A DNA stretch of 48,945 bases, the filler included, from Bipalium vagum (lineage: Eukaryota): NCBI GenBank assembly GCA_037834085.1. It is 2 parts of 2 records of this genome, joined end to end, with 100 filler letters (N's around TTAATTAATTAA, not from the genome) between each part and the next. Parts side by side here need not be neighbours in the genome. Positions count along the whole stretch, not along the records: positions 1 to 23,035 come from JBBMKC010213919.1; 1 more part is not named here. One strand, 5' to 3'. This document shows positions 1 through 35,709 of the stretch, one piece after another. The notes beneath the pieces are model-generated. The model did not search any database, had not been told where the DNA came from, and saw nothing but the letters and a program-made list of their open reading frames with translations. Made by a program: the position numbers and the translations under genes. How positions within the stretch are numbered: the first letter of the stretch is position 1; each line of letters starts with the position of its first letter.

Positions 1-143
1 CTTGAGTTTGACGATTTTTGTGTAAATGTTATCATTGTGATTTTGTGTTATAAATACAAGTTTTGCTTTACTGATTGCTATTATTTTTGCACCACCTAAG
101 AGTTGGAGTCTGGCTTAACGTTTGAAACCTTATTTAGTGAACA
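1..143 (+). mobile_element. 3' end of the 5' LTR of a Ty3/Gypsy element
   Basis: Ends in ...TAGTGAACA (CA terminus at 143), followed 7 nt later by a TGG-initiated PBS-like motif and then gag. Confidence 0.6.
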
Positions 144-150
144 TATTTAT

Positions 151-165
151 TGGTGAGCCCGAAAT
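151..165 (+). promoter_or_regulatory. Primer-binding site (PBS) of the LTR retrotransposon
   Basis: TGGTGAGCCCG... is complementary to a tRNA 3' end (...GGGCTCACCA). The primer tRNA identity (possibly Arg) is not established. Confidence 0.6.
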
Positions 166-565
166 CCGGAAATCAGTTGGCAATTGTGAAATTTGTTGCG
201 TGATTGTGTTTATTGGTTTTTGTTAAGAGTTTGCGTGATTATTTTTGATTTTGTAAACCCTGAGTAGCGTAAAAAACTACTGGAAAAAAAAACTACTGTA
301 AAAATTTTTGGAATTTTTAGTAAACCCCGAAGAGGTATAAAAGTTGTTGGTATATTAATAGTGTTTCAGGAAGAAATTAGTAAGCGTTCAGAAGACTAGC
401 CTGGCTAGTGGAAAGAAATCAGTCACAGACATTCGAGGAGTTATAACCAGAAGTTCGACAAAGATAGTTAAAGAGAGAGGGGTAGAAGAAAATCATTTAG
501 AAATAGAGAATAATCGAGAAGCAACAGTAGAAGATATTAATACAAGTGTTAAAGAGATAAAAGGA

Positions 566-1690
566 ATGGATTACGAATTAGTAAAATTACCGGTTAGGAC
601 ATTTAATGGACAACCAACAGAATTTAAGATTTCAGGCAAGTTGCAGAAGCGTTAGGATACGCAGAGGCAAGAATCGTAAGAAGATTACCGATTCATTTGA
701 GTGGAATGGCATGAAGTGTATATTATGACATAAACATAGCAAACAAAAGTTTGACGAAGAAGCTAATTCCAAGAGATATAGGTAGAGTGAATAGGCAAAT
801 GTTCCACAAGACGAAGCAAGGAGCAGAAGAGCCAGTAGGCGAATATGCGTATCAAGTAGAATTATTAGCACAGAGAGCATGCGAATCCAAGAACAGAAAC
901 AATTAAAAAGATAGTGGAAAATCAGTTTTTCATTGGCATGTTACAACTATTAAGAACAGCGTTAGAATTGGCAGATTATAAGGATTTCGAAGAGTTACTG
1001 CAAAAGGCACGAAAAGCGGAAATGAATATTAAAGGAAACCCAACGATGATTTGTGAAATAGGAGCAGTTAGAGGAGACAGCAGTAGGACAAGAAACGTGG
1101 AGTCTAAGAGAAATGAGATCAATGAGCAACTGGTAAAGAAATGTTTTAATTGTCAGAAGCCAGAACTAGGAAATCAGAACTTGGTCCAGGTCCAGGTAGG
1201 GGTCAGAGGCGGAATACAGATATTGTTTGTCGAAACTGTAACGAAACAGGTCATTTCGCAAAAGAGTGTAAAATAAAAATTTGTAGGCATTGCAACAAAA
1301 GAGGACATTTGGAAGAAACGTGTGGCAAAGAATTCACCCCAAAGAGATAATGTAAACATCGATGGGAAAGTACAATGCTTTAAATGTAAGCAGTATGGGC
1401 ACATGGCGAAATCTTGTCTTAGTGAAAAGACATCACCAAAAGTGGTTAAAAGGTTGGCATTCGGTAATTCGAAAATAAGCATGGTAAGAAATATTGAAGA
1501 CGATGATGAGACCAAGAAATTGAGGGCAGAAAACGAAGAATTAAGACGGCAGTTGTCCAGGGTAATTGGACACGAGACGATATCAATGATCAAATCACAA
1601 GAAAATGAAATTAAGATATTAACCAAAAACGATTCGCTAGAAGAGAAAATAGATGTTAACGGGAATGTAATAATGGCATTAGTGGATTTG
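566..1690 (+). pseudogene. gag: Degenerate Gypsy gag with four CCHC zinc knuckles, running into the start of the aspartic protease
   Basis: Reads MDYELVKLPVRTFNG..., with knuckles CFNCQKP (degenerate), CRNCNETGHFAKEC, CRHCNKRGHLEETC and CFKCKQYGHMAKSC spread over frameshifted ORFs 914/1150/1322. Followed by KIDVNGNVIMALVD, a protease ALVD(TG) motif that is cut short. Confidence 0.85.
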
Positions 1691-3096
1691 GATCAAGAAG
1701 AATACAATACACTTTCAGAGGTACTAAAACGGGAATTCGCAAGAACGCCAAGAAACAAAGACAGAATTATGAATTTGTTAAGTCAGGTAACGGAGATAGC
1801 GGTCACTCCAATGATGCTTGGAAGAATAGTTAAAGTAATAAAGCCACATATAGGAGAGTTTGGTGTTCAACAGGCAGAGATAAGATCCATGATCCGTAGA
1901 TACGGAAGATATATGAGGTTAAGAGGAATATATCAGCGACCAATAAAAATCAAATTGAAAATGGTTGGATGGGAAGAAACGGACATAGAATTTCATTATT
2001 GTGTAAGGGTTCGAGTAGTAAGGGAAAAAGCAACTCAAGTAATGGTTAGGGAATGGATCACATTAATTTTCTGGAATACATACCAGGTAGACGACGACTA
2101 ATACTTATTGGACTGTGGATGCAATGCAGAAGAGGAAACATTAATCGTTGCAGTTCAGGTAGATAGCAATGGACGGCCAGTATTAGCAGGAAACAGTTAT
2201 GAAGAATTAATCAACCAAACTGGCCAAGGAGGTTTGAGACCACCGGAAATGGCAACAGAAGCAGCACGATCCAAAAATCAGAAAGCAACACGATCCAAAG
2301 TTACAGATCCTGATTCAGTGGTTTTGGAAGAAATATCCGAGGAAGAAGAACTACAAAGACCAATAGAAATATCACCAGTAGAGCAAACTCGGGAAGAAAT
2401 TTCAGGACCGGGGGAACAACTATGACCACGACAATTAAGACCCGGAAGCAATCCAGTTGGGAGACCAAGGAAGGACCCAAATGCTCCACGTCCTCAAGGA
2501 ATAAATCGAGAAACTAAAAGAATTGTACGAAGAGAGTATTTACACAGATTAGCCGACCGATACAGGAAACAGTATGAGGAAGAAGCATACGACGAGGCCA
2601 CAAAGGAAGATCAGGAGCGATTACGAAGATTGATTGAACTAATTATCCATCAATGGAGGCAACCGGAGAACCAGATAATTTAACTATAGAAATATTTTTG
2701 GAAATGTCGAAAATTTTATCAGATATTGAAGATTTTGTGGAAGAACCAGACAGCATGAGCGATGAAGTATGGCTAGCACAATTATGTGAAGGAAGAATGG
2801 ACAAAGAAAAGGCAATGGTAAGTATCGCATTAATTTTAAAAAGAGCGGATAAAATGAATCGGGAGTCAGGGAGACGAAACACGGATATATTAATTCGAGG
2901 AGCTAATAAAATGATTGAAGATTATTTTGGACCTTGGATGCAGTTAAACCAATGATGGCGAAGTTTATTGGGAGCAAAGCAGACATCAGAATCAGAGACT
3001 GAATCAACCTCAGAAAAATCACCTGAATCTCCAAGAAGACAGTCAGAATTTAGGCAAAAAACAAGGCGGGAAGAGCAACAGGAAGAGCCGAGATGA
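1690..3096 (+). pseudogene. Orphan ORF inside the Gypsy element, in frame with gag, carrying an AT-hook-like GRPRK motif
   Basis: ORFs 1322-2101 and 2108-2425 and the readthrough to ~2685 share one frame, interrupted by TAA 2099 and TGA 2423. A frameshift leads to 2653-2955, with readthrough to TGA 3094. Contains PVGRPRKDPNAP. Confidence 0.6.
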
Positions 3097-3099
3097 TAG

Positions 3100-4219
3100 T
3101 CAACCCAAGGAATTTATTCGCTTGTAGACCTCGAAGAATGTCCAGACGCATATCCAATAATTATGATAACTTCCATAATCAACTACAATAATCTTTTGGT
3201 CCGTTCACTATACAGGAAAAAATAACAAAATTTGCAAATGGTCTCATTCAATGTCCAGCCATGAAAAAAATTACATAAAAAGGAAACAGCTTCTGTCAAT
3301 CTTTTATTTTACAAAATATTTCAAACTGTGCATTAATGGCAAACAGTTCACATAAGGCAGTTTACATAAAATTTATGATGACAAAAAAAAAGCCATTTAC
3401 TTCACAATTCCACTAGTGGATCAACTTTCCAAGTAGTTTGGATATGAAAATAGAATATAGAAAAGGAGTGAACATTAAAGTACAGATATAATATTAAAAA
3501 CAACTTGTAGTCAATGTTTACTATGTTTATTACAGCACGAAGTTGATAAAATTAAGAAAATAAAAACACTTACATCTAATATGATAGATTTAAAACAAGA
3601 GAATCATTGGAATCATTGACAGAGCAATAGCCTAGAGATATTACGTAAAAAAATAAAAGGAAATTTTACAAAATCGGAAGAACTTAACACTAAATGAAAA
3701 GTGTGGATAACAGAAGAGAAATCTAAAGACTTTCTTGAACAGGTGCACAAAAGTGGCTAGATAAGTAAACCTGAACTTTGAAATGAAGAAATTATGGGAA
3801 TATACGAGAAAAGTTGTAAAGCAATGTGATTATTGTCAGAGATCAAAGATATTGGATGCAATGAGACGGTGATGAAATTTCCAAAATTTGAAGTGTTTAG
3901 ACAGGTTATGATTGATATTTGTGGATCTTTTAGGAAACATTAAGTGAAAAAACACATATTTTGACCATCATTGACAGTAGATTTATTAGATTAATTTCGA
4001 TTTCAAGACCAAATGAGCGAATAATATTAAGTTCATTTTGGAATGCACGGGTTTTAATGTTTAGAACACCTCGAAAATTTTATGTGGATTGTGGAAAAGG
4101 CTTGACTTACGGGCAACAAAGATAAATTAGAAAATATAAATGCAAGTGTTTTCTCTAGTTCTTATCACCACCGGACAAACAGGTTGATCGAAAGACAGTT
4201 TCGGACTGTAAGGAAGCTA
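3100..4219 (+). pseudogene. pol: Degenerate Gypsy pol: RT/RNase H remnants and integrase N-terminal plus core region
   Basis: Fragments YSLVDL, CKWSHSMSSHEK, WINF..LDMKIEYRKG, the integrase zinc-finger QCDYCQ, IDICG, VDCGK and HHRTNRLIERQFRTVRK. Many stops and frameshifts. Confidence 0.8.
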
Positions 4220-6454
4220 TTTTTTCCAGTTTACACACCGGTCGTGGCCTAGACCCGCATGTACCTCGTATGCGCAGAACATACAACAAGGAAGTACATA
4301 TAAACTGCTAACAACACCAACTCAACCCATCACCAAACACCAAAGAGTAACAAAATAAAAACGAAGAACGAAAAGAAATAAAAGAAAATATAACTTACTT
4401 AACTTACCTGCCTTGGGGGTTCATCTTGACCAAGTCTCCTCTCCCAGATCATAAATGACCTCAGGTTCTTCCCAGTTCAACCGTTGGATACCCGTACACT
4501 TTTCCCTTTCTGCTGAGACAGTGATTCGAGCTCTAAGAATGGTTGTTACTTAGGGAGTCCTTACGGTCACTCACTCAACCCGTTGAACGTCAACCAGATC
4601 CAGATACGGCCTAAGCCGAATCATTGCAGCTGAGCCCTCCAAAGACCTCACAGTCATTACTTTCAGGTCCCCGAGCGTTAACCCGAGTTCCTTGAGTAAT
4701 AATCATGTGCTATAACACCAAGCCCCCATCCAATTGAGTGTTATATCTGCTACAACGGGTGCACTCGTCCCGCCCGGGTCTACATACCGATGTACCTCGC
4801 CTATATCATATTTACGACCCTTGATCTTATTAGCTTCCTCCAAGTTTACCAAACTTAAGTCGCTCACACTCTGGGCGTCTAAAACCAGAGGAGGAACACC
4901 TTTCTACGTTATCCGGCTTTTTAAAACTGCACTTTTAGGGAATTTTCGGTTCGACCTCGACCAGATAGCTTAAGGCTTTAAGCTGGGCCACCACATATCG
5001 ACTACACGATTATGTCTCCAGAGATGCAGATCTTTTACAACACCGATTTCCTGGAGTATATGGTTAAGGCTCTAAAGCTTGTCACCGCAGTCTTTATCAC
5101 AGTATGAGCTCCTTGAGCCAGCTCTACCTCTACTTGCTCTGGTCGCAGTTGTAATCAGGTTACCCTAATATAATCTCTTCCGGTCAAAAGTTTGGTACCA
5201 TCGTTGACTCACGAATGAACCCCTGGGAATCGATCCATCTCCGCCAATCCTTTTCCATACAACGTTCCATATAATCTAAATCCTGTAAGGCGATAGAAGT
5301 CGTTCATCAATCGCACTTCGTCAGGGTTCGTTCCACAATGCGACCTCCTTACCAAACCTCAGAATCTCACCTGCCGCACGCACAGCCGGGTCAGTGCTCT
5401 CAGCTAACTTTACCAGCCACCATACCTTTCCGAAATATACTGCAGCCAAGAGTGACGTCACCCCAATACCATCATCCGCCATCCTAGCATGGATATTCGC
5501 TGAAGTCGTATCACTTGGTAATTTCAGCCATCGCTAACTTTCCATCGCACATACTTATCAAGCGTTCTCAACTCAGTTGCGGTTACCAACCCCAATAACC
5601 CTACATGAAGGATCTTAGAAATAAGGAAGTCGTCGCGGAGGATACACACTCTCTGTTGAGGCTTCAGTGGAGATTTTGACACCCCACCTAGACCCCTCAA
5701 GAATAACCGACTAAAATCCTCTTTGACTGGATCCTTTGCCAAGAATCGAATACCCAAATACTTATTTGTGTCGGTATTACTCGACATGTTGGGCAACAGT
5801 TATCGCTAAGGGCAGCATCTTCCAAGTATGACCAACCGCTTGGATTCCATTGTCGTGCACTTCTTTGGTGTCAACTGAAGTCCGCTGAACCGAAGTTCAT
5901 AGACCAACCAACCAAGATTCCGCACCAGCTCACGTTCCAAACACCACGATATCATCCGCATAAGCCAAGATTGGAGTTACCTTCTTCATCCAGCAAAGGT
6001 CCTAACATGCGCTCTCTAACCTTACTAATTGAGGATTCCGACACGTTGTTAAACATGACTGGTGACAATGGGTCTCCCTGTTTCACCCCTCGGTTGATTG
6101 CTACGGTGACGCCGTTAATTATCGTTGTCGCATCACTGTAATTACAGGTAACATACTTAATTACCATTTCCGGGATTCCTCTTTCACTTGCCGCCCAGAT
6201 GAGCGACCCATGATTCACAGAACCGAATGCGTTCTTTATATGCAAAACGCCAAATAGAATCTTCCAGAGTCCATCTTAGCCTCTTCCATGATACCCTTCA
6301 GTTTTGAGATATTCTCAAGGCAACCGTACAGGGGTAAGAACCCCTTCTGCTCATTCCCCAGTTGAACCCCAGAAGAGATTCGCTTGGTGAGAATCTTATT
6401 GAGCAGGCGTGCAATAATGGAGCAGATCGATATGGCTCGGAAGTCACTTCACTT
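4220..6454 (-). mobile_element. 5'-truncated R2-like (RLE-type) non-LTR retrotransposon, degenerate
   Basis: Minus strand reads DFRAISICS..., EQKGF, KNAFGSVNH, RGVKQGDPLSPVMFN, YLG, then CDKDC..HILQ, RHN, KPD, VLDAQ and KGRKYD, i.e. RT + CCHC + restriction-like endonuclease motifs. Followed by a 3' UTR and a short A-tail (T6 at 4220-4225 on +). Markedly more GC-rich than its flanks. Confidence 0.9.
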
Positions 6455-6840
6455 GAAGAAACTCTTAATTAAGAAAAAGTTAGAAGTTGAGACACTGGAC
6501 TTCAAGAGGTTGAGTTTACTTTAAATGCAACTATTCAGAAGTTTTTAGGATGTTCTCCAACAGAAGAAGTTTTCGGAAAAAAGATATTTCATAAAAATAG
6601 TTTTCAGCAAATCACAAAAGGGAATTTACAGACAGGATCATGCAACCGATATTGGGGACTACGAGAAGACACTTCAAGATTGAAAAACAAGTGCATGTAA
6701 CATTGGAACAGGAATAGAAAAACCAAAATTTTTTTTAAGGTCCTTTTGAGATTTCTGGGAAAAATCATGACTTACGTTACCGACTCAGAGATAACAACCC
6801 TCCGGAATTTGAAAAAAAATGTCGAGAAGTTTTCATAATA
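6455..6840 (+). pseudogene. Gypsy integrase C-terminal part, resuming after the R2-like insertion
   Basis: LQEVEFTLNATIQKFLGCSPTEEVFGKK is the typical post-catalytic-core integrase segment. A degenerate GPF motif follows at ~6740. Confidence 0.8.
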
Positions 6841-7537: not shown

Positions 7538-9487
7538 ATGGTGGATATGTATCCATTTATCCATGGTGGTGTAGCTTCTATCTTTGCCGAAATTTGTAAT
7601 TTAATTGTTTTATTTTGTAATATTTATTTTATAAACAGGTACTTATCCTATTGACACAACCAAAACACGACTTCAAATTCAAGGCGAATCGTCCTTCAAC
7701 AATATCATAAAGGAATTTAAAGGTGGACATTATAATGGGATGTTTCATGCATTTCGAATGATAATTAGACATGAAGGTATCTCAGCACTGTATAGAGGGT
7801 AAATATTGGTATTTGAAATGGTTATTAGAGAATTGAAATTTTTAGATGATTCCCCTTAATTTTTATCAATTTAATTTTCAATTAATGGTTCTTGTCTATT
7901 TATTTACTTTTTTATTTATTTATAAATTAATTAGACTGAGTGCGGCAATTATCCGACAAGCTTCCTATGGTACTATGAAGATTGGTATTTATGACAAACT
8001 GAAAAAAATGACAAATAAAACTAAAGGTTCTTTAGATTTATTTTATTAATCTTTTTAAAAGGAAAATTAAAAATATATCTATTTAAACAATTTTCAATAA
8101 ATGTATTGTTTTATACATAGACGAATCAGTCACCAATAATATTCTTTGTGCAGTTATAGCTGGTGTGCTTTCGAGCACTATCGCAAACCCTACCGATGTG
8201 ATTAAAGTAAGTTTTTAGTTTCGTTTTAGTCTGTTTCATATTTTAACATTTTTATTTAAAATATTTATAACTAAAATACTCTGAGAAATTTTAATTAAAA
8301 CCGTAATTTTTTAATTGATAAAAATCTGATTCCAATTTTTGCACCTCTTTGTCTATTAATAGATTAATGTTACTTAAATTAACAATTTCACAATTTTTCT
8401 TGTCTAGATATTTTAGTCTATTTTTTATATTTTTTTATTATATTATTATTATGAAAAAAAAATGATCTTTTTCAAAACGTTCTGTTGATCAATTTACAAT
8501 GTTAAATGAGCAAAATGCCACCATTTTTATGTAAGTGAAAGTTATGAGTAATTCTTTGGATGTACTTTACGATTTTATGTTGACAAAAAACTTATTAGGT
8601 TAATTATTTATGGTAAAGGAACAATAGCAAAGAGATGGCTTATTCGATTAAGATATGAATGATTTTATTGGTTGATAAGGTCAATTAAATTATGGAAAAT
8701 ATTAACAAAGATCGATTAAAAAGTATTGACAACATCGCCATAAAGTTAAACAAACTAAAATCTAATATTTAGTTTTTGAAAAAGGCTGGAAGATCGAAAT
8801 GTTTGGTCTTCAAAAATTATTTATATAGGATTCCCCTCACTAGAAGAAATCGAGTATTTATCAAATGTTAATAGAAATAGATTCGTAATAATAATAATGA
8901 CCGATTTCTTTTAAGGTGATTTTACCTTTTTGGTGAAATCGAAAAAAAGAAATAGTACACTATGCCTTTTGGAGTCTGATCAAACCAATTTTTCTGCTTA
9001 GAATATGAAATGACTATTAAAACGAAAAGAATTAATAGATAGGAAAGCAAGTCCAAACATACAAAAAACAAAGAACTTGAACTTAAAGTCTTAATGTGTC
9101 AAGTAATAAAACTTTCATTGTCTGTGATGAAATGATATAGGATTAGATAGAAAATAACCTGGAAAAAGATATTTTCCCTTTTCTTAATCAGATGATCACA
9201 GGAGTTTTCTAGAACATAATTATGGATTTACAGAAAAGATAAATGTGAATTTCTGATTTAAAATAGTAATTTTAGAAGTTAAAAAGAAATTTCAGCAATT
9301 TATTATTTCAGTCTATAATTCCAAACTAAATTCGACGTTAAACAAAACGAATGGATAAATATTTCTCCGACAATTTCGTTGACACTATCGTATTCTGAAA
9401 AAATAAAATAAATATTTGTGAAATTAGTCTTACCAGGACCACAATATAGTTTAAAATATTAAATGGACCTAATAGATAAAAATAGTA

Positions 9488-12302: not shown

Positions 12303-15300
12303 TAAGTTAGTTTTCTGAAATATTATAATTTTAATATTATATTATTCTAATCTATAATACAAATTATACAAGTTAAAAAAATGATATCACATAAAATGTT
12401 AAATATATATAATCCAAGACTCATTTTCACTTCAATTTCTACTTCTTTGCAAATTTGAACATAATTTCACTGATTTTGAGTTTTATCAAAGTGTTAATTT
12501 ATTATTCTAAAAATTATTCCAAATAGTTTCTTTGGAATAATTATTATCGAAGTTTAACAATTACTCTAACCGTGTAATTTAACGACGTTTAACAGTTTTT
12601 AAAATAATTTCTTAAATTATTTTTCTTTTCAATTATTGGTTGATTTATTGATGAGTAATTAAACTTTTTATTCTCGGCTATAGATCTCAAGGTACCAATA
12701 AGTATTATTTCTAGGATCCATTTCACATAAGTTTTGAAAGTCAACACCTAATTTTCTTAACTCGGAAACATGCGGGAACCCGAAATATGTTAATACTGGT
12801 TTCTGAATAATTTCACAAGAAGTCATAGTTTTTCATTTTACGATCACACCAAAGATTTTTCATGTGTTTTATAAAACATTGATTTTTGATATACATTTTA
12901 AACTCTTAAATGTATACCGTGTTATGTAATTTATTTGTGTAATTTATTTGCATTAATGTGTATTTTTGACTATTTATTTTAACTAAATGACAAAATATTT
13001 TAGCAATTTTTAAAATTTTTGCTTTTTTGGAAACCATGAGGTATAAATATTTAATTCTTGATTAAAATCACATGATGATAAATCGAAAATAAACAAAATG
13101 TAATTTTTCAACGATCTTTTAAAATTATCCAATAATGATTTTCGATGTCCTTTTGAGACTTCAATTGTAAACTAAAAAAATATACTCATCATAAATCACA
13201 TATAGGTTGGCGAATTTAAAACGTTCGAAAGTAATGATTGATAACTTCATTCCAATGCAGGTATATTGGTAAATGGCTCCGAGTACAACAACCATTAAGC
13301 GTGTGATTAATCATTTCGAACGTGAGGGTAATGTTTATGTTATCCCAAGAAATAAAAATTGTCCCATACGAACTACTGACAACATCGCTGTAGTAGCCGC
13401 GGCAATTAAAATCAATCCGAGATTATCAACACGCAGACTGTCTTGTCAACTCAATATCAGCAGACGGGGTTTAAGTAAAACTTTATATTACAAGTCATGC
13501 AATTTTGATAAGGTCAATTAAAGAACAAACACTCTCGCATCATTGTGATAAACAAAAATTCTAATTAAAATTTATTGAAAAATTATAATTCGAAATTTGA
13601 TATATAAAATCCGCAACTTCGTACTGCACAATCTAACAACTAATAAAAGAAATATTGATTATCTATATATTATTATTTAGTAGGTAAAGACAGATTATTC
13701 TTTAAATGATTTGGTTTATATTTTCAAAATTCGGTTTAGTTAGTATTATAATTTTATTTTAGTTCGATATAGGTAGACTAACATTGACAGGAATGGATTG
13801 ACATATTAAGACCTGATTTCCAGTGATTTTTTGAAGGATCAAGTATATTTTAAGAGGTTGATTGGGATAATGAAATAATCATTATTGGTAAATCAATGAA
13901 TCCAAAATTATTAATATATTATTCACACAATTATAGATAAAAGTTCTATTATGGGCAATGAAAGCAAAGAAAATAATGTCAAATTAATATTGTTTTGAAA
14001 AATATATTTTCAAATTTGATCAAAAAAATCTTTAATGTTTGAAAAAGTCAATATTATTGATACATTATTAAGTGTTTCGTGGTCCACTAGGGGTGTTATT
14101 CATTATGATCTTTTGCAACAAGATAAAATAATAACAGTGGATGTGTATTGTGGCCAGTTAGACAGATTGAAGGAAAAACTTGAAAAGAAGTGGCCAGCTT
14201 TGACCAACACAAATAAAGTAATTCTTCATCATGATAACGCACGGCCGCACACCACAAAGAGAACCCTCCAGAAAATTAAGAACTTCGGCTGGGAACTGTT
14301 ATTTCATCCTCCTTATAATCCTGACATCGCGCTTTCTGTCTACCATATTTTCGGTGCAATGCAACATTTTTTGGTCTGAAAAAAATACGATTTCCATGAA
14401 GTTATAAATATAGCCATCCTAAACTTCTTCGATTCCAAACCACATGATTTTTATAAAGATGGCCTTATGAAATTAGTTTCTAAATGGAGTGACATCGTAG
14501 AAAACAATGGTGCTTATGTATTTAGTTAATATATCTGTTCTGCGACTTAAAAAAAAAATTTTTTTTTATAAAATCGACATTACTTATTTGTCGACTTAAT
14601 AATAACTTAATCCATAAATTGAATTTTTCTCAAAAATTGAATTCAAAAAAGTGAATTCGCACTTAAAAGTATTAAGAAAGAAAACATTTTTCATCACTTA
14701 TATTTTTATATTAATATCAAAAATGATTTTATTTATAAATGTATATTGGTTAATATTAATTTGACCAGATGTGTATTTATGAAGTTTATATATAATAGAT
14801 CATTAAAAATATCAATAATGTAAAAATTCACCAAGTATTAGAACTTTTAAAATTTAATTTTCATTGGAAATTTTACCGATAAAGTATACATATAAAAACT
14901 CCGTAAAAGTTTTAAGTTTGATCATTTAAATTTGAAAACTTTTCTTGAATTTTAATGTGTACACATATATTCAAACATAAAATGGATATTGATTTTGACC
15001 AAAAAAATTCTTTCAGTACTAGTAAAATGTTTTTGAAGTTGTTTGAAAATTGGTTTGTAAAAAATTTAATTTTTTTATATTTTCTCTATTAGTGATTTCG
15101 AAAATTTTTTTGGTTAATAATTTTATTTAAAGTACTTTAGGTTATTCTCTTCAAAGTTCGATAGTAAACTTTTAATCATGAACATTTGTTATCAAGAAAT
15201 TCTGCCAATTAAAATAATTACATGAAAAAATCAATAATAATTAGAATAATTGACGGTTGTGACTAAGAATTCGTTTATTTACTTTAAATATTATTTACCC

Positions 15301-18300
15301 AATTTTAATTCTCAAAATAAAAAAATGCTTTGTAGATGCTATAAAATAATATTTCGAAATAAAGTTAAGATGAACCAAACATCTGGCAAAATAAATTCTT
15401 TAGAAGTTTTAAACTGGATGTGGTAAAGAAAATAAATTTATGTATGTCGGTTTGTTTTATAATCTTTTCAGATAAGAGCACTAAATTCCGCTCGGTAGAA
15501 CAGTTTATTTAATATTTAAAAAATTCTTGATTGTGGCTGCCCTACCTTTGGAAAGAAAACCACTTCAAAACATTAATAAACGAATCTCAGTGAATATCAC
15601 TACCGATCACGGATTGATAATTTTGTAGTTTAAAGTGTTTTCTTGAATAAATTTCTTCAGTTAGGTTTATGAAATTGTCTCGTATATTACATAGATATCA
15701 CTGGAACCAATTACATATATACAAGAATAAAAGTATTGAAAAGGTAGGTAAATAATTTCACAATGTGAGCAAGAAAATTATTTTTAAAAATATTTTTAGT
15801 GCCGAAAAATGAACTTAAGAAAGTAGAAATGAATACGAAACTATAATATATTTTAAAAAGAAAAGGATAAGAAAATACAAGAAAAGCATTAAAATAACTG
15901 AAAATGAATTCAATAAAGAAAAAGTGAATATAAAAAGTATTATATATTTCATGAAGAAATTTTAAACTTACAAAATTATCCAAAGGTTCTTAATCATGAT
16001 AAAAGTTTTCTTAGTTTTTTTTATTATAACCGTTTTAATATATATTCGACCTTTTAAATACATTATTTTTCATTATTAACATAATTTTTTTGTCTAGTTT
16101 ATTCATAGTTTACTTTTTTCCTGTTTTTTATTTTTCATTATTTCAACCTTGAAATAGCGTCTGCATTCAGATGACTGACTCCCTGTCGGTATTCTAGTTC
16201 CATACCTAAGCCACTTAAATAATTTATCCAAGTCTGGAATTGTGGAGTGATCGGTTTTATTGACGTGATCATGAATGTAATGGTCTTGTGATCTGTCCTT
16301 CATATGAATCTTTTACCATAAAGATAGGGTTTGAAATGATAAGAGCTTCTTTCAGGTAATGCAGTGCACTCTATCGTGGTCGGAAATTGCATGGGATCCA
16401 TATGAAATAACTCTTTCCTTACCTTCATTGTCCTTCTGGGCCAGCACTGATCCAATCGTATCAAAGCTGGCGTCCGTATCTAGAATAAGTTCTCTTCGTA
16501 TGTTTGGGAAACTTAGCATTGGTGGATTGGTAAGGGCTTTTTTCATCTCTGAGAAGGCTGTACGACCTTTGTCCAAATTAGTTTCTCTGTTACGTCCACA
16601 AAGTTCTTCTAATGATCTAGCCTTGTTTGCATAACCCTTAATGAAACGCCGCTTATAGTTTCAATAGTCTAGAAAACTACGGAGAGTTTTCACATACTTA
16701 GGGCGTTCAAATTTGTTTATAACATCGAATTTCGTAGGGTTGGCTTTCACTTATCATTGCCCCAAAAATTTTATTTCTTTTTGTATAAATGAGCATTTGT
16801 CGCGTTTATTGGTAGTCCTGCTGATTTGACTCTCATCAGCACTTCATTTAAGCGTCTCACATCTCACACAGCTGCAATGAATTCTTCCAGATTTTCATTC
16901 TTCCTAAATGTCTCCGACATTAGTCTGCTTAATAGCAGATCCGATTTTGGTATGGTCGCCATGTCAGCTACAGCAATTTCATTTTTGATGTCTGGAATTA
17001 TAAAAAAAAACATGCTTTCAAAATGTATTAAAAAAAATTATCTGCCGACAACCGTATTATTTAAACAACAAATAATTTTGAATTGATTTTTTAATATTAT
17101 TAATAATCCTCACAAGATATATTCGACTTATTAAATACATTATTTTTCATTATTAGCATAATTTTTTTGTCTATTTTATTCAAGGTTTACTTTTTTCTGG
17201 TTTTGGAAGAATAAAAAACAGATGTTAAAACAATGAAACCTGACATTTTAATAGTAACCGTGCAGCTGATATTTTTGGCTGACTAAAATGTGATCAAATT
17301 TAAATAGAAAAAATCGAATTTTTTCCCTATATATTTCTGAATAATTTTCTATATATTTTTGCATAGAATTATATATATTTTGAATATTTTTCTATATATT
17401 TATGCATAAACCTGTAATATCAATTTATTGATATTATGTAATATTTCGATAAAAGAATTTGCTTAAATAATCATCTAACATGTCAACGATATTTCAAGAA
17501 TAACGATATTTCTGAATAATTTTCTATATATTTTGAATAGAATTATATGTATATTTGCATAGAATTACATATATTTTGAATATTTTTCTATATATTTCTG
17601 CATAAACCTGTATTACTCCAAACACCTATTTGGGAAGTTCCGTCTTTTTACAATATATTGAATTTAAAATAAAACTTAAAAAGCAATTGTAAGTTTTTTA
17701 CGGATTGCTTTTATATATAATTATTCATTTTGAGGTGTTATCGAAATGAAAACAAAAGAATATTCAATGGAAATAAGAAGTCACGTAATTCAACATTATA
17801 AATATGAAAATGAAACTTTTCTGAAAGAAAAATTACTCGACAAGAATCCAAAATCCATTGTTCATAGCATAATTGCAAAATATAGAATGTTAAAGCGAGT
17901 TGAAAATAGAAAAGGAAGAAGGATGGAAATTTTTACCGAGAGAGAAGATAAAAATAATAAGCGAACTAAAGTTAAATCCAAAATTAAGTGCTAAAAAATG
18001 TTTTCCGAAGTCTAAGATAAGATGATGAAGTCATCAAGTACCCATACAACTCGAAATGTGTTGCATCGAGTTGGATTTCTAAATGAATATTCGAAGAAGA
18101 AGCCATATTGTGAACAACAAGAAAAAGATTAAAATTTGTATGAGTGCATTTATTGAAAGATAATTCCTTTTGGAAATAAATTTTGTCAGATGAAAGTAGA
18201 TAAAGTGTTTTGGAAGGTTACAAGTATGTATAAAACCTAAAGAATCATTAAAATGAAAAAACTGAATCTTACTGTGAAACACGGTGGTGGCTGTTATGCT

Positions 18301-20887: not shown

Positions 20888-23035
20888 GTAATAATAAAGA
20901 TTTTATTTAAATTTATCTGAATTTAATGATCATAAAAATATTAGTCAATTTTTCTGTTGAAATTTTGATTTATCGATTTTAATTTTATTATCAATAATTT
21001 CTTATTTTTTAATTAATTTGATTATTTATTGTTTTATATAAATGTTTAAAAAAATGAAAAAATTAATAATTATAATTTATAATTAAAGAAAAATATTAAT
21101 AGATCAAAGAGATTAAAAATAATGATTATAACTATAAAAATAATCAATAAATTTAATTACAAAACAAAAAATGTTAATTAACGTCCACGACCACCAGTAA
21201 AATTTAAACTTCGTAGATGAATATTGACAAGAGGAGAGCAATCTTTATATTTTTTAGCATCATTGCATGAATTTATCTCACCACCGACAGAGTTTCACAT
21301 AGAAAATCTCAAAGACTTCACGGTCATATTTTGTAATATATTAGAAAATGAATAGGTCGTGATTTTTCATGACGGATTGAGCTGAACAAGTAAATTGAAA
21401 AATTGAAGTTTTTTGATCATCGAATTGAAACAGTAGAACTTCAACTGAACTTAACAATTATTGATTTATTATCATTGGTCTGCTTTAGTTCATAAAATTA
21501 CATATTTTAAAATTAACAAAATCTATTCAAAAATTTATTTTCTTAAAACATGTTATGAACTTTTCTTTTCACTTCTTCATCAGTTTTAATTAATCGCAGT
21601 AAACATTAATCATCCATTGATCTTTACCCTCTTCATGTTAATATTTGGTTGCCTTTGTTGGATTAATAATGATTCGCAGATCTTTCGTTCGTAATTGTTA
21701 TCAAAATTTCCAATAATTATATGAATTCGTCTTCTTTAATCTTGCTTTTTCTTTCGCGGTGATTCAGTATTTTGATAGTTCTTCTTGGTATATATTATTA
21801 TATCCATGAAATTTAAATTGGTACACGATATTAGCACTAGATTTGATTTTTAATAATTCTTAGTTTTTGATGTTAATGATATTATAATTCCCATGTTTTA
21901 GTTTTTTATTTTTTTGAAAGTTAAATCCCTTGGGAAATTGTATTTTACAACATTTTATATCTCATGTTTCTTATTTATTTTTAATATTTTATTTTATTTT
22001 TCAAGAATGTTTCACGTAATTAATTTCGTAACGTTGTCATTAATGATCCATTTCTATACTCGCTTCTTATTAATCTTTCTTTAATTATGTCTAATTATCT
22101 ATTCATTTGCTTATAATCGGATGTTAATGACCATACTCTATTGATTACTGGACCATTTTTATATTTTTCCTCCAGTATGTTTCTTTTCTATACATCCTAG
22201 TTGTCAATTTATTAACCTCTTTATCCTTTCTAATAATAACATTTAGGAATGTTATTTTTTAAAATTTTATTTATTGATTATCATTGTAATGATTATTGTT
22301 TTAATTTTAATTTTTCGTATTTACAACTTTTATAATTATTGATTTTTACTAATTTTATTATAGTGTATTAGGGCATTTGAAAGATTCTGATTTTTACTAG
22401 TTATTTAAATTTTTTTTCATTTAAAATAATGATTTTCAAAATTGATTCAAAAATTTAAAAGTTTGACAAAAATTCTTTTCTATGCATATTTATGGCCGCG
22501 AGTGCATTGACATTAAACTGAAATGGCGGTTTTATACAATTTATAGTGTGTCCTTTTGATAAGGTCACAAGTTTGTTTCACATGTCGATGACCTGGAAGT
22601 AGGACTGTTGTTAAAGTTGTTTTCTTCAGTATTTTATTGAAGTGTTTGCGGTCAATTTTTAAGGAAAGTAAGTTGGTAACGTTTTCAGAAATCAATTATA
22701 TGCTTTTTATGATTTTTTAAAAAATATTTTTCATTGCAAAAACTTTTTAAAATTTATTTTATCTTTTGAAAAACATGAATATAAATCAAATTATAATTTT
22801 TTGTATTAAAGACGCTTAATAAAATATTATTTTCCAAAAATACACATTTTATAATAAATTAAAATTTAATCTGCTTAAGAAGTTATTTTTATAACATGTC
22901 TCGAAGTTTTAATCAGCTCATCAATAAGTCAACAGTAATATTATTCATATCTTAATTAAAAATTTATTAAATTGTCATTGTTAAAACAGTCAATTAATTT
23001 TTGCATTCTTGTGATTGTATATTGATCTCATTATT

Positions 23036-23135
23036 NNNNNNNNNNNNNNNNNNNNNNNNNNNNNNNNNNNNNNNNNNNNTTAATTAATTAANNNNNNNNN
23101 NNNNNNNNNNNNNNNNNNNNNNNNNNNNNNNNNNN
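23036..23135. other. Artificial contig linker: N44-TTAATTAATTAA-N44
   Basis: Exactly 100 nt and symmetric. The 12-mer is palindromic and gives stops in all six frames. Confidence 0.9.
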
Positions 23136-23858
23136 AAAAACAAATGAGATATGATATCTACTCAAAACTGATTCAAAGAAATACCAATAATCCATTTTTC
23201 ACAGAATAATTACGTGTGATGAAAAATAGATCCTTTACGATAACCGTAAACGTCCATCTAAGTGGGTTCAGTTCCAAATTGTTCTCCAAATCAAAGTTTG
23301 AATCCAAAAAAGATGTTGATATCAGTTTGGTGGTGTCAGACGGGTTTGATTCATTATGAATTCCTAAAAAACGGTGAATAAATAACATCAGATGTATATT
23401 GCAAATCAATTGGAACGTATGCATTAAAAATTAAAAGTTTTGCATCCAACAATTGTCAACAGAAATATTCCAATTTTGCTGCATGACAATGCGAGGCCAC
23501 ATGTCGCAAAACAAACACTGTAGAAGGTAAATGAGCTTGGACATGAGATTCTTCCCCACCCGGCATACTCAGCGGACTTATCTCTTACGGATTATTATTT
23601 ATTTCAAGCATTACATTATTTCCTGTCTCGAAAGATTTTCAATACTTACGACACCGTAAAACAGGTATTTGAGGAATTCGTTGTGTCTCGTAAACATGAT
23701 TTCTATGAAAAAGGAATATTAAGTTTTCAATCACGTTGGGAACAATGTATTAAATGTAATGGAAATTATTTTTAATAAATAAATGTCTTAAGTCAAAAAT
23801 TATTTCATTTTCTTTTTCATTCGAAAAAACGCTAATTTATTTCCGAACAACCTGATAT
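23136..23858 (+). mobile_element. Mariner (DD34D) 3' two-thirds with right TIR, truncated by the gap
   Basis: ITCDEK*ILYDN, LLHDNARPH, HPAYSADLSLTDYYLF, RWEQCIKCNGNYF. Ends ...TTCCGAACAACCTGATA. Confidence 0.9.
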
Positions 23859-24289: not shown

Positions 24290-27200
24290 ATGTTGATGAA
24301 CAGTACAGAAATTCTGTCGAGAAATAAAGATTTCCGATTTATGTTTTTATCCGTTATACCAATATGGACTTTTTTCACAAATGGCATTGTCTTGGTTGCA
24401 TTTGTCCGGGAAAAGAACTTGAAAAATAATATGGCCAATATTACAATAGCTTCATTGACTTTGGCAGACTTTTTGTTAGCTCTTTTTGTGCTGCCTCTGG
24501 CAGTTTATTTTAAGGTAATTGCGTTCTTTTTTTTTTAATAAAATACTTCTGAAAAGAAAATTATAAAAAATAAATATTTTAGAATTAACTTAAAAATATT
24601 TAGCTCATTGAAAAACACCTCTTTTAATATTTTTATTATGATTATAATATACTGTTTTTTGGAAAAGGATTAAGAATCGCAATTTATTAATGAATAATAA
24701 TTTCTTATATAAGAAAAAAAATATAAATAAATAAATTTAAAATAGATGTTAAAACCTATGAAACATTTAGTTAAAAAAATATTCATTTAAACATTTTTTT
24801 AAAATAATATTAAAATTAATTAATACATTAATTAATTCGAAAACCCTTAATGATCTTAGATTCTATCTTAGTAAAGATTATAAATATTTTAACAATATTA
24901 GGTGTGTGAATTAATTCAGTCCGCTTTTATGTCAATGAATCATTGATTATTTTTTAAACATAAAACTTATTAATTTTTTTAGTTTTAAAATATTTTAATA
25001 ATATTTTCCTTATAAAAGTTTTGTATTGTAACAATAATATATTTTTAACTCAATTAAGTGTCAAGATTTGAATCGGATAAACATCATTGCTCATTTTTTG
25101 TTTCCATTTAATTCTCATGGAAGCTTATGGTTAAATTGCTCTGAAAGGTTATTCAGAATAATTGACGGTTGAAGTAATTGTTAAGTGTTTATAGAACAAT
25201 TTCTGTGTTTTGCAGCCATGGGAAAGATTTATAAAGAATGACAACGGATGTCATATAAACTGAAAGAAGACGCAGAAAAAATGTTTAAAATTTATCTTGA
25301 AAGGCGAAAAAGAAAAAGGTTTTGTATCACATGTGGATTGGAGACATAAATAGAATACGTGGTGTCACAATAAAGTTTTGAATTTTTTAAAAAAATCAAA
25401 GGTATTAAAAACAACAATAAATCATATTTCATAACTCAAAAGAGTCACCATTGACTTGAATGCACTTAGTACATCTTTTATTACAAAGCGCCAAAAAAAT
25501 TTTTAAGTCCACTTTTGGAATACCGTACGGTTCACTAATAACAATCATCTGAATATCCTCAATATATTAAAACATTATTTTCTTTAAGTATTGATGTCAG
25601 CTTGGAAATAGATTGAAATCTGCTGTACCTAATCCGGTTAATATTGTGAATAGCTGATTACCATACATCCTGTAAAATCCAACTTCCTTTAGTACTGTAA
25701 TGAGGTCTTATTTTGCGAATTCTTTTCAAAAGCCGAAAAATCACTTCTTTGTAATAAACAGGATTGACTGTTTTATCAGAAGGTAGAACTTCTTTGAGAA
25801 TGATTTCGTGGGAATCAAAAAATGTGATCAGGAGGATTTTAATCTTTGATTCTTGTAGCAATAACTTTTTTAGTTTTGTAGAGCTCTTTGAACCCCATTG
25901 TATATTCTGTCGTTTGATTTCAGGATCATATTGAAAACACCACTACTCATTACCGGTAACAAATCATAAAATTTGGGTCAATATCACAAGCCAAAATGAA
26001 ATTTCTGCAGCAATCAACCCTGAGTTGAGATAATTCAGCTGTCAACCTGTGAGGAACAAACCGTGAACATATTTTTTTCCTACCTAAATTCTCAATTAAC
26101 ATTTTCCGAATTGATTTTCTATTGAATCCAGTTTCATCTTTAAGCATCCTTATTGACTTCAATATTTTCTTTAATTTTGTACATGTCTTCATCATGTCTG
26201 GAGGTAGATGGACGGTTACTTCTCTCATTATCAAAAGGATCATTACGACCTTAACGTAAGATAGAATATTATTCAAAGACTGTAAATCTTGTCATTGTAT
26301 TGTTCCCAAACATAATTTTTAACATTAATAAGGTCTCAGTATGTGTTTTGCCTAACGTATAGTAAATTTTGATATTTACTCTGTAAAATTGTGTCAATAC
26401 TTAAAATGTTAGCAGATTAAGTTAGCAGATTACTTCAGATAAACAAATAAATAGTTGAAATCAAATAATCAGAAATTTCAGTGAAGTATCATGTGCTGCC
26501 ATCATAAACAAAATTCATTTTAAACTGTATAATTCGCGTTATAAAATCATTAATAATATTATTGGAACTTTATTGTCACACCATTTATTGAACGCTGAAA
26601 ATCGATATATGTCTCCGAAAAACTGTGGAAATCGAAACAAAAACGAAATATTTACTCCAAGGAAGTAAAATGCTTCACAAATTGTTAAAAGTAAATCAAA
26701 ACCTTAACTGTAGAGCGTTACAAACAACGATTGATAGATTAAAACAAAGCATGGAAAAATAAGCCACCAAAATAAGTAAAAAAAATATAACCAAAGTGTA
26801 TAAGTAAAGAAAAGACTTAAAAAAATAAAAAAGATAGTGAAATCAAAAAAATTAGGGAAAACAAAATGGAACTAAATTATAAAATAAAAATAGAAAAATT
26901 ATTATTATAATTTCTGCACTAATTCTGTTTTCCTGTGAAAGGTTTCCCAAAATATTCTAATTATGCTTATCCTACATTGTAATTAAATAGATAATAATTT
27001 CTATTATGATTTTGGCTCTTTCTGCCTTCCTTATTGCAGGAAATTCCCCATCAAAAATTTATAAATGAATAATCCCGAAGACAGATAGCACCGGGAGCTT
27101 CGGTGGGCGTATTAATGAAAAAATGTATAATCTAATACAACTGTGTTTACTGCAAATTAATGCTGAGCCTACTGACGAAGCTGTGAGCATATTTCTTGTG

Positions 27201-33200: not shown

Positions 33201-35709
33201 TTAAAAAATTATCAGGTTAAAATTACCAAAAACAAAACTATATTGAAACACTTCTTTCAGCAAGGTTGTAAAAATTTTTATTTCATAACAGATAAGGAAG
33301 TCTTTCATTCAATTTACAAAATAGATTGCACACAGTTCTGAATTAATGTGGCTAGGCAAAAGGTGAAATGTTGACAAAGTTCTTTTCCAGATCTACAAGC
33401 GACTTGATTGGATATTCTTGTCTATCGTCTCTTGGACATTGAAATATTTGTAAATTCACTTGGAGGAGCCTTGCACTAAACTTTTCTAATGGCCTAGTGC
33501 TTTTCAATTGGTGTCAATTGCGGGAAAAGCCTATTTTCCACTTCTTAAGAGTGTCAATAACATATTCTTCATAATGAGCTTTTGCCAAACTTGGCTAAAC
33601 AGACCTTATCTGAACCACCAAACATGTCAGCAAACTTAAAGGGGCGAGGTAAAAAATCTTTTTTATATTCTGTTGACTTTATAGTAATAGTAGTATCTAA
33701 AGGTCACTGTGTTGACTAAGCACATCGAAATCAATTATTTCTTTGGGAACTTTGGTCTTCGGTTATTTTTTTTATTGTTGATACACTTTCCACGTCATTG
33801 TGATATTAATTGCCAATTATTTCATTTGAATTTATTAGCACATTTGACTCCTCTTACATATCAACAAATTTATTCTGTTTAATTAACAATATTCTTCGAT
33901 ACAATTTCCAAGCATTATTTTTACATCTTTCCGGTTGAACTTCTTCTTTCTTGTCTTGTTTTTCTCGTCTAAATAAATGCTTTAGAAATACCCTAAACAT
34001 TTACCATGTTTTTACCAATTTTATGGTTCCTCTATAAATATTGTATCTTTTTCATCGTTCGGTTGGTTAGCACTGACTTTTGGATCTTAATTCCCAATGT
34101 AATCAACTCGACCCTTTTCATTGTAACGTTTCAGCACCTTTTCGATAGTTCTCTTTTTAAGACCTTAATCAATAAAATGGATAATGGTTATCTTACGATC
34201 GTTTTGATGACACTTGTTACAATTGACAATCGCATTTCCCATTTCTTCACACGTTTTTTATTTCACTTTTGGTTTGAAATTTTTTTCTGTTTAATCAACT
34301 AATCAACGATTTAACTTTCGATTAAAAGTTTGGTTTGTATTCAACAGGTGTTTATAGCGTCACATCTGTCATATCAGTTTTTCGAACTTAAGTCTGAGGC
34401 ACCCTTTATTAGTACGAAGTTATTTTTAGTTGTTTTAAATTCCTTTATTTCGACATAAACGAGATGAAATCGATCTTGGATTATTGAATAACTCTTATAT
34501 GTCATGCAGAAATCAGTTGGTATCATTCCAAAACCAAAATATAAGAAAGAGAAATTCAAGCTACATTTTTTAAAAAATTAAGACAAAAATATCAATGATA
34601 AGAAAAAATAAGCAAAAAATATTTCTAATTTAACTTTATTTTTTGATATTATAAATAAAATATTGTTTATTTATTATCAATTACAGGTCAACGGCGGCTG
34701 GGACTTGGGTTTTCCTCTTCACTTGGCATGGTTTTGTACGGATGTCTTCTTTTCATCCAGCAGTATAATGAATCTCTGTGCTATTTCCGTTTATAGATAC
34801 CTGGCAATCGCATATCCATATCGGATCAGCTACACGTTATCTGTGAAACACATTGTATACCTTCTCTTAGTAGCATGGGGCCTTTCATTTCTAGTCAGCT
34901 TGGCCATGATGATTGAGGCGATCATTTATCAAAACTTCAATGATAAAACTCTAAATTTTAAGTCAATGGAGCACAGACCTTATAGAAATATATCAATAAA
35001 GTATATGATGGGAGATAAACCTTTCCTCATTTACGGAAGTATTTTGACTTTTTTCTTACCTCTTACCATCATGGTGTTCACGGTTTTTCGAAGCATACAA
35101 ATGTTGAAAAGACATAGTACCCTTTCTTTTGGACTTCATCAAGTGATGAATTGCGGAATGAATCCTCAACAGATTATCGGAAGGAAAAAACAGAAAAGTA
35201 AAGATTTAATCAAGGAACAAATAAATAATGACAGTTACTTGCCAATTTCTAATACTGTAGAACATTTAATAAATGTCACGTCCAAGACGGATAATCATCA
35301 AGTGGAACCTATTAGGGTTGCAAATAAAGATCGCTTAAGTTCCGGAGCAAATGTCTCACTGTTACCTTTTCCAATTGTCGTTCCACAACTTAAAGAGTGT
35401 CAGTCCCAAACAATATCAATGTTGAGAACTACCATCAGAAATGTTTACATTATTTCATCGAAAGAACGACGAGCAATTCGGACACTTCTTATTGTCTTGG
35501 TATTTTTCGTAGTCTGTTGGTTTCCTTTTTTCACTCTTCAGCTAATCATTGCTTTTACCTTCAATGATGATTTTGATCAGCAATTGCTATTCGACTTTGC
35601 ATGGCCCGGTTACGTTTCATCCGGCATAAATCCGGTTATCTATGCCATATTTCACCCAGAATACAATTTGGCCATGAAAAAATGGTTGTTGGAGTTATGT
35701 TCCAAATAA
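24290..35709 (+). CDS. Class A aminergic GPCR, most like serotonin 5-HT2-type receptors. Exons 24290-24514 and 34687-35709, ~415 aa.
   Basis: Phase-0 join AAG|GTAATT...TTACAG|GTC gives ...VLPLAVYFK-VNGGW.... Motifs: TM2 SLTLAD, TM3 D3.32 (TDVFFSSSSIMNLCAIS), TM5 FLIYGSILTFFLPLTIM, TM6 ERRA...CWFPFF, TM7 WPGYVSSGINPVIY. The subtype is inferred from motif resemblance only. Confidence 0.88.
24898..26780 (+). mobile_element. Old mariner remnant (outer element), split by a second mariner
   Basis: Left TIR-like TTAGGTGTGTGAATTAA. LERRKRKRFLYHMWIGD lies before the insert, and KRNIYSK..LLKVNQ..TVERYKQRL after it. Confidence 0.65.
25358..26585 (-). mobile_element. Near full-length degenerate mariner with both TIRs and TA target duplication
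   Basis: TA-CGTGGTGTCACAATAAAGTT at the left and AACTTTATTGTCACACCATT-TA at the right. Minus strand reads CSRFVPHRL, TGNE*WCFQYDPE, KILLITFFD. Confidence 0.9.
27434..27572. other. Assembly gap inside the GPCR intron
   Basis: Run of N. Confidence 0.99.
27700..27895. repeat. Low-complexity A/T tandem repeat
   Basis: Repeated AATAATTAATTAAAAATAAATAAATAATATA-type units next to the gap. Confidence 0.8.
28449..29600 (+). mobile_element. Degenerate Tc1 transposon
   Basis: TA-CAGTC start, MKRDTELSDFIRGRI, IMIWDTFS, FEQDND, PWTSISPDISPIENVWG. Right boundary approximate. Confidence 0.8.
32325..32886 (+). mobile_element. Internally deleted mariner remnant with right TIR
   Basis: CEVCGEHAP..SCEDWLKLFK and HGKVILFLDNASSHT. 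Ends ...TTACCGGTACACTTAATA. Confidence 0.75.
33950..34408 (-). mobile_element. Tc1/mariner-superfamily 5' fragment
   Basis: Minus strand starts TA-AAGGGTGCC and reads AIVNCNKCHQNDRKITIIHF..GLKKRTIEKVLKRYNEKGRVDY. Similar to the 10830-11290 remnant. Confidence 0.55.

Follow-up and report, generated by a model that had tools for sequence, protein, structure and literature searches.

The question raised by this locus of Bipalium vagum (assembly GCA_037834085.1) is what a reading frame unrelated to pol is doing directly behind the Gag of a Ty3/gypsy element. The first-pass annotation of the window, by which we mean the whole 48,945-nucleotide stretch analyzed, took it for an orphan AT-hook ORF of ca. 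470 codons that had replaced the protease-reverse transcriptase (RT) module. Here, this ORF, which lies between Gag and the envelope gene (env), is called X. Our best reading of the whole, which we consider probable, is a dead copy of a cassette of host-protein-like domains, set in frame between gag and env, whose likely role in intact elements is to keep the producing cell alive during particle production. As to identity and layout, we can say with high confidence that the locus is a decayed, compact, Burro-like, enveloped retroelement of the Ty3/gypsy type with the order GAG-ENV-POL. The members of the cassette are, in order, a four-helix domain, a ubiquitin-like (Ubl) domain, an AT-hook-like motif (the hook), and likely a Bcl-2-like domain, as observed in the domain order of the relatives. 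The window copy itself is dead.

X is not an orphan. A full HMMER search (query, 1691 to 2650, with stops written as X; cutoff, E ≤ 0.001) gave eight relatives, and in three of these (P0007, P0010, and P0011) Gag is fused to domains that follow the zinc knuckles in the order seen in the window; a profile search added the relative P0012. The relatives are unnamed, single-member protein clusters (8/8 looked up), and two of them, P0004 and P0012, carry tandem repeats of the combined helical and Ubl module. P0011 reads Gag-helical-Ubl-hook, envelope, and then four tandem aspartyl proteases, all in a single 2296-residue frame and with no Bcl-2-like part. Word-index protein searches found nothing among 3005 candidates, only the query itself among 7989, and two matches among 7998, which is weak evidence of rarity, and an atlas search with residues 800 to 997 and 545 to 632 of P0007 gave no usable match. 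A metagenome scan recovered two loci, L001, the source of P0007, and L002; as a relative, the latter (a 53-residue match in a phage-like contig) was set aside as chance.

The element, whose features lie on the plus strand unless stated, enters the window through the 3′ part of its 5′ LTR (1 to 149, cut by the window start). Copies were judged from the contigs of three runs (X1, X2, and X3) from three organisms, with the best-supported contigs listed, and the LTR was recognized by raised contig depth in X2 and X3 (in X3, among the contigs listed, 87.5 for contig 49 to 101 versus 14 for the internal region). It ends in ..ACA ahead of a primer-binding-site-like TGG, its exact end being presumed, and the putative primer binding site, TGGTGAGCCC.., called on its sequence, occupies 150 to 161. 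A blastn search with 1 to 480 found no 3′ LTR in the window. The Gag capsid (569 to 1081, with one stop and two frame changes) was located by tblastn with the capsids of P0007 and P0010 (E = 5e-9 and 1.5e-10, respectively), the former having a predicted fold that resembles the PEG10 CA-CTD (Z = 11.7). Zinc knuckles of the CCHC type follow at 1142 to 1417, with two frame changes (zf-CCHC, E = 3e-4 and 3e-7). Four had been counted, but only three are complete (1228, 1282, and 1376), and the remaining one is a truncated CxxC at 1142. The short, coiled-coil-like Gag tail (1490 to 1579) was called from the sequence, weak coiled-coil Pfam rows, and a similar helix at 370 to 398 in the P0007 model. 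Three-frame translation bore out that frame +2 leads from the final knuckle via VNGNVIMALVD, whose D ends at 1687, into DQEEY..., and translation also confirmed the lesions reported in X, i.e., TAA at 2099, TGA at 2423 and 2953, and a frame change near 2645 (reported near 2650). X had been described as having only a few lesions, but there are five breaks in its 1.41 kb versus five in 1.14 kb of gag, so that nothing marks X as specially kept; in the window copy it shows no sign of special preservation over gag.

Between the Gag tail and X, at 1580 to 1687, there is a spacer and an N-terminal protease stub that ends at the would-be catalytic Asp. The protease-like start proposed for this junction is supported by scoring against the four protease N termini of P0011. 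The stub scores 27.25, the top value of 32,945 15-mers in the window (the next is 14.25), and was equaled by none of 300 shuffles. Moreover, the 36 residues of 1580 to 1687 give an ungapped alignment with the spacer and protease start of P0011 (E = 0.015); Pfam gave no protease match at the stub. It is missing from P0007, P0010, and P0011, and P0004 carries a matching stub ahead of the same helical domain. The P0004 stub is not proof of a protease origin, since its score (13.0) is near that of a Ubl hairpin in P0012 (11.8). One rather doubtful explanation is that the stub is the scar of an X-env cassette that landed in an ancestral protease gene just past the catalytic Asp, with a full protease retained downstream. 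The four-helix domain, Ubl domain, and hook would then make up a conserved module that can be repeated (as in the tandems of P0004 and P0012) and that has a separate function, either the nuclear targeting of Gag or its turnover. If this were true, the family would be a record of the steps leading to the GAG-ENV-POL order. The stub may mark the way in which env came to precede pol.

The absence of the stub from the three Gag fusions would also fit a one-off recombination or an assembly chimera at 1687, as would the X2 contigs, none of which, among those listed, bridges 1687 and which break near 1688 to 1703. However, diverged contigs from two organisms do bridge it (X1, 1517 to 1960, with 65 differences; X3, 121 to 1794, with 236 differences), and the matching stub of P0004 stands before the same helical domain. 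The junction is thus common to many copies, as had been supposed, and is neither single copy nor chimeric by this test. A one-off event at 1687 is largely refuted and very improbable. What holds is a non-pol module fused in frame to Gag right behind the protease-like stub, in a copy with neither protease nor RT.

X opens with the four-helix domain (1691 to 1924, given no family), aligned to residues 553 to 628 of P0007, and continues with the Ubl (beta-grasp) domain (1937 to 2161, containing the stop at 2099), homologous to residues 633 to 710. AlphaFold places in P0007, with the window as a row in the alignment, four helices at 553 to 628 (pLDDT 78 to 90) and a beta-grasp at 634 to 707, with pLDDT values of 78 to 92 over both. 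The predicted beta-grasp resembles SUMO, ISG15, and ubiquitin (Foldseek E = 3e-5; Z = 12.6, rmsd 1.5, 76 aligned), and P0012 matches Pfam ubiquitin with an E of 8.3e-6. The C-terminal Gly-Gly is missing in every row of the relatives' alignment, and to judge from these sequences, the Ubl is an integral domain rather than a conjugatable modifier. For the four-helix domain, a candidate likeness to TFIIS-N/LEDGF-IBD found no support in Pfam or PDB and was dropped. The profiles A1, A3, and A5 repeatedly matched RLP7, a protein of ribosome biogenesis, with a best E of 7e-5; this match crosses the boundary between helices and Ubl and conflicts with the predicted fold, and it was provisionally treated as chance.

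An acidic, Pro-rich linker (2162 to 2452, with the stop at 2423), seen in translation and corresponding to a low-pLDDT linker in P0007, leads to the hook at 2453 to 2473, which translates as PVGRPRK, so that the GRPRK reported earlier is indeed there. The core of an AT-hook is Arg-Gly-Arg-Pro. The window and P0008 have Val-Gly-Arg-Pro, with Val in place of the canonical Arg, and P0007, P0010, and P0011 have the full core. In the window, and likewise in all four relatives that extend that far, the GRP is found 124 to 199 residues beyond the Ubl motif. Of the chromatin-targeting idea, the presence of a hook stands; on the other side, the motif has only five residues, the first Arg of the core is missing, and Pfam AT_hook gave no row for the window or the relatives searched.

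The last domain of X is a helical one (2500 to 2979, with the frame change near 2645 and the stop at 2953) that aligns to residues 875 to 990 of P0007 and is likely Bcl-2-like in the window copy, as suggested by its relatives. Residues 820 to 990 of P0007 match Pfam Bcl-2 with an E of 0.019, short of the cutoff and third of five rows, and the sponge protein BHP2 with an E of 0.71. Modeled alone, this region reached pLDDT 66 and pTM 0.62 (pLDDT 41 to 51 in the other four models). All 45 rows listed by Foldseek belong to the Bcl-2 family, the best with an E of 0.013 and none reaching 0.001. By VIA, the top 28 of the 50 rows listed have the Bcl-2 fold; the best, a schistosome BCL-2, gave a Z of 8.3 (rmsd 3.4, 133 aligned), a modest score for a helical domain and within the chance range for helical bundles, and the first unrelated row gave a Z of 6.1. 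The link from P0007 to the window was assessed by shuffling. The likeness of 2647 to 2982 to P0007 875 to 990 was matched by 5 of 1000 shuffles locally and by none of 1000 globally, and its likeness to the tail of P0008 was better than 999 of 1000; the tails of P0008 and P0007 have no significant likeness to each other (151 of 1000). The C-terminal piece of the window (P0003) gave no Pfam or PDB match of its own, and when it was added to make a two-row profile, no Bcl-2 chain was found and the weak BHP2 match was lost. The Bcl-2-like part is dispensable, since P0011 has none.

The BH1 region of Bcl-2 proteins carries an NWGR-type motif, which is kept in neither P0007 nor the window, and P0007 retains the BH2-type Trp motif, as the window does in part. 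We lean, if modestly, toward an anti-death role for the cassette. The Bcl-2 fold has been repurposed as a scaffold in poxviral proteins of the A52/N1 type, and it is possible, although we expect it less, that with the layout unchanged the Bcl-2-like fold here is such a scaffold, or a spacer or anchor, in a cassette mainly serving particle assembly, Gag turnover, or the damping of immune signals rather than the control of apoptosis. The degenerate BH1 region would fit, as would the poxviral Bcl-2-fold proteins that fall in the same VIA score band, the lack of the domain in P0011, and the tandems of P0004 and P0012, which suggest that the Ubl module is the core. On the other hand, the top matches are cellular Bcl-2 proteins, the BH2-type Trp motif is retained as described, and Burro elements have BIR domains as well (PMC6431247), which fits selection directed at apoptosis.

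The helical domain is followed, at 2980 to 3110, by a Ser/Glu-rich tail and then a break, without the hydrophobic segment that precedes env in the relatives (mean hydropathy of 1.1 in L001 and 1.7 in P0011). Pol had been thought to resume at ca. 3100, but what begins at 3111 is the N-terminal stub (3111 to 3157) of a gB-type (Monjiviricetes-fusion-like) envelope, and RNase H (RH) appears only after ca. 3190. Positions 3115 to 3156 are identical in 9 of 14 residues to the envelope N terminus of L001 (pairwise E = 8e-6) and in 10 of 14 to that of P0011. The window keeps only these 14 matching residues, and the gB class is read from the relatives: the frame behind P0007 in L001 matches Monjiviricetes_fusion (PF24664) with an E of 7e-43, and P0011 matches it with an E of 1.7e-87, followed by its four proteases. 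P0011 has a transmembrane helix at 1444. L001, otherwise an open element, has an in-frame TGA between X and env (3058 to 3060), either a read-through site or a lesion. Our initial reading of 3100 to 3300 as RT was ruled out by the envelope match and the late start of RNase H.

The remnant of RNase H and integrase (IN) at 3190 to 4215 is heavily broken (Pfam RT_RNaseH_2, E = 0.004; Integrase_H2C2, E = 0.076; integrase after ca. 3600), and no RT or protease match was found in 3160 to 4230. As had been noted, pol is more decayed than X, the RH-IN remnant being more broken by eye; it is also far less like the family than gag-X. Env lies upstream of pol in the window, in that 3111 to 3157 precedes RH-IN, a remnant that may stem from an older related copy. 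X did not displace the protease and RT: it sits between gag and env, and the protease and RT were lost downstream, near 3157. The integrase is split by a nested non-LTR retrotransposon on the minus strand (4215 to 6452; RT and a restriction-like endonuclease type tail in translation; RVT_1, E = 8e-7), which the X1 contigs skip and for which no target duplication of at least 6 bases was found; the C-terminal remnant of the integrase, translated by eye, resumes at 6452 to 6700. A second gypsy fragment, RT-RNase H, is found at 16026 to 17204 (minus strand) between 102-nucleotide direct repeats that are 86% alike, and its RNase H tail resembles the 3403 to 3446 patch of the first.

Contigs of the three runs tell family features from those of the window copy. 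The stretch from LTR through gag and X to the env start is present at family depth in all three organisms. In X1, summed depth, which is not copy number, is 9,000 to 40,000 over 1 to 3042 versus 21 to 27 for single-locus contigs, and X2 and X3 have long contigs over the same span, about 86 to 90% alike. The env stub has depths of 43.8 and 42.2 in X2 (ca. 80 for X) and of 13.5 in X3 (14.9 for X), joined in all three runs to upstream sequence unlike that of the window, and the RNase H patch (3403 to 3446), within a 1166-nucleotide contig in X3, is at family-level depth in all three. The window arrangement of 3111 to 4312 is single locus in X1. Thus, the family is gag-X-env-pol, and the breaks near 3100 and 3157 are peculiar to the window copy, which lost the env body, protease, and RT via a copy-specific junction near 3157. 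The end of the ORF, placed at 3096, is a lesion of the window copy, as an X3 contig continues past 3093. It is improbable that this is instead a non-autonomous Gag-X lineage under selection, with env and pol decaying and the hook as a chromatin tether. The summed depth in X1 does drop to 130 to 290 over 3511 to 4212, RH-IN is more broken than gag-X, and the position of the hook is conserved. However, summed depth is not a copy count, all three runs cover the env stub and RNase H patch at family-level depth, 3157 to 4312 is single locus in X1 (depths of 26.6 and 21, no differences), and X is no less broken than gag. In view of the env start and RNase H patch, neither option of the first-pass annotation (a non-autonomous Gag-cargo lineage or a one-off recombination) is favored.

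For the gag-X-env-pol family, we propose that a single polyprotein is made, with Gag and X remaining in the cytosol. The hydrophobic pre-env segment would act both as signal sequence of Env and as membrane anchor for Gag-X, like the tail anchor of Bcl-2, and the Env membrane helix would bring the chain back to the cytosol for PR-RT-RH-IN, the protease (PR) and RT of the window family being deduced from P0011. The Bcl-2 fold would bind pro-death BH3 partners, damping apoptosis in the producing cell. The Ubl, having no Gly-Gly, would act as an adaptor and not as a conjugated tag, and the hook may bind nucleic acid or serve as a nuclear signal. The anti-death cargo of Burro1 reportedly, in a later account, benefits planarian stem cells.

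Such a layout is already published, and what the locus adds is mainly one more decayed, compact member. In the part of the 2019 paper considered here, the planarian Burro/GYPSM1 elements have a Gag with two or three knuckles, Smc, MATH, BIR, ankyrin, Ubi2/SUMO-like, and BCL2-like domains, an in-frame Env, and then PR (Arkhipova and Yushenova, PMC6431247). They include Burro1 to -4/GYPSM1 of Schmidtea mediterranea and a Burro-like element of Dugesia tigrina, with decayed copies bearing stops and frameshifts in D. japonica, and were suggested to interfere with apoptosis and ubiquitination (PMC6431247). Burro is abundant and expressed, according to the parts consulted of PMC12440569, PMC13238120, and PMC8532177. 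The window family shares with Burro the CCHC-knuckle Gag, the coiled coil, a Ubi/SUMO-like domain between Gag and BCL2 (in the window, via P0007), and a mononegavirus-like Env after X (a stub in the window; the full Env-then-protease order is that of P0011). The BCL2-like domain that Burro has before Env has a likely counterpart, recognized at modest scores in P0007 and indirectly for the window. In contrast, Burro has MATH, BIR, and ankyrin domains, an ORF1 of ca. 4,900 amino acids, and a size of >30 kb. In the window, it is 1.7 kb from the last knuckle to env, and the Gag-to-env region of ca. 850 codons is filled by domains other than MATH, BIR, and ankyrin. Having neither the size nor these domains, the family is not a Burro but is placed within the GAG-ENV-POL group as a compact element that resembles Burro. 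The dUTPase of Burro lies between PR and RT, a region deleted in the window copy. Conversely, the window family has a four-helix domain and a GRP hook, and its cassette is preceded by a protease stub. The four-helix domain and hook are not named in the consulted part of PMC6431247 ("AT-hook," 0 occurrences), nor, together with the stub, in the consulted parts of it or PMC13524379. A literature search for LTR retrotransposons with an additional AT-hook ORF at gag gave no matches. As the locus shows, the minimal gag-env cargo is helical, Ubl, and hook (plus Bcl-2-like), without the MATH/BIR/ankyrin load, a small natural domain set that makes the 2019 suggestion on apoptosis and ubiquitination easier to test.

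GAG-ENV-POL errantiviruses with gB-type env have also been described in nematodes, bryozoans, and flatworms, among them the Platyhelminthes HSV/gB-type Smed_errantivirus_1 to -6, with 45 and 215 copies for Smed_1 and -2, respectively (Chary and Hayashi, PMC13524379, in the part considered). The window family resembles them in gag-env-pol order, gB-type env, and multiple copies. By eye, env motifs present in P0011 and L001, relatives of the window family, recur in the env table of that paper only in Smed_errantivirus_1, -2, and -3. Ubiquitin, Bcl-2, and AT-hook have 0 occurrences each in its main text, as far as covered. The viral Bcl-2 homologues (BHRF1, KSHV Bcl-2, and poxviral ones) are likewise cases of a Bcl-2 fold in a mobile or viral genome, but in the window family the fold sits in a retroelement polyprotein, and its function is putative.

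The rest of the window holds other features. A palindrome around two N runs (23031 to 23140) is likely an assembly artifact. Mariner-type transposase remnants are found on the plus strand at 14020 to 14379 (Transposase_1, E = 6e-12) and, by eye, at 25950 to 26291. A mitochondrial carrier gene, judged UCP/SLC25-like by eye, has exons at 7540 to 8210 (plus strand) and onward, and a rhodopsin-family GPCR ORF is found at 34612 to 35709 (plus strand; 7tm_1, E = 3e-33).
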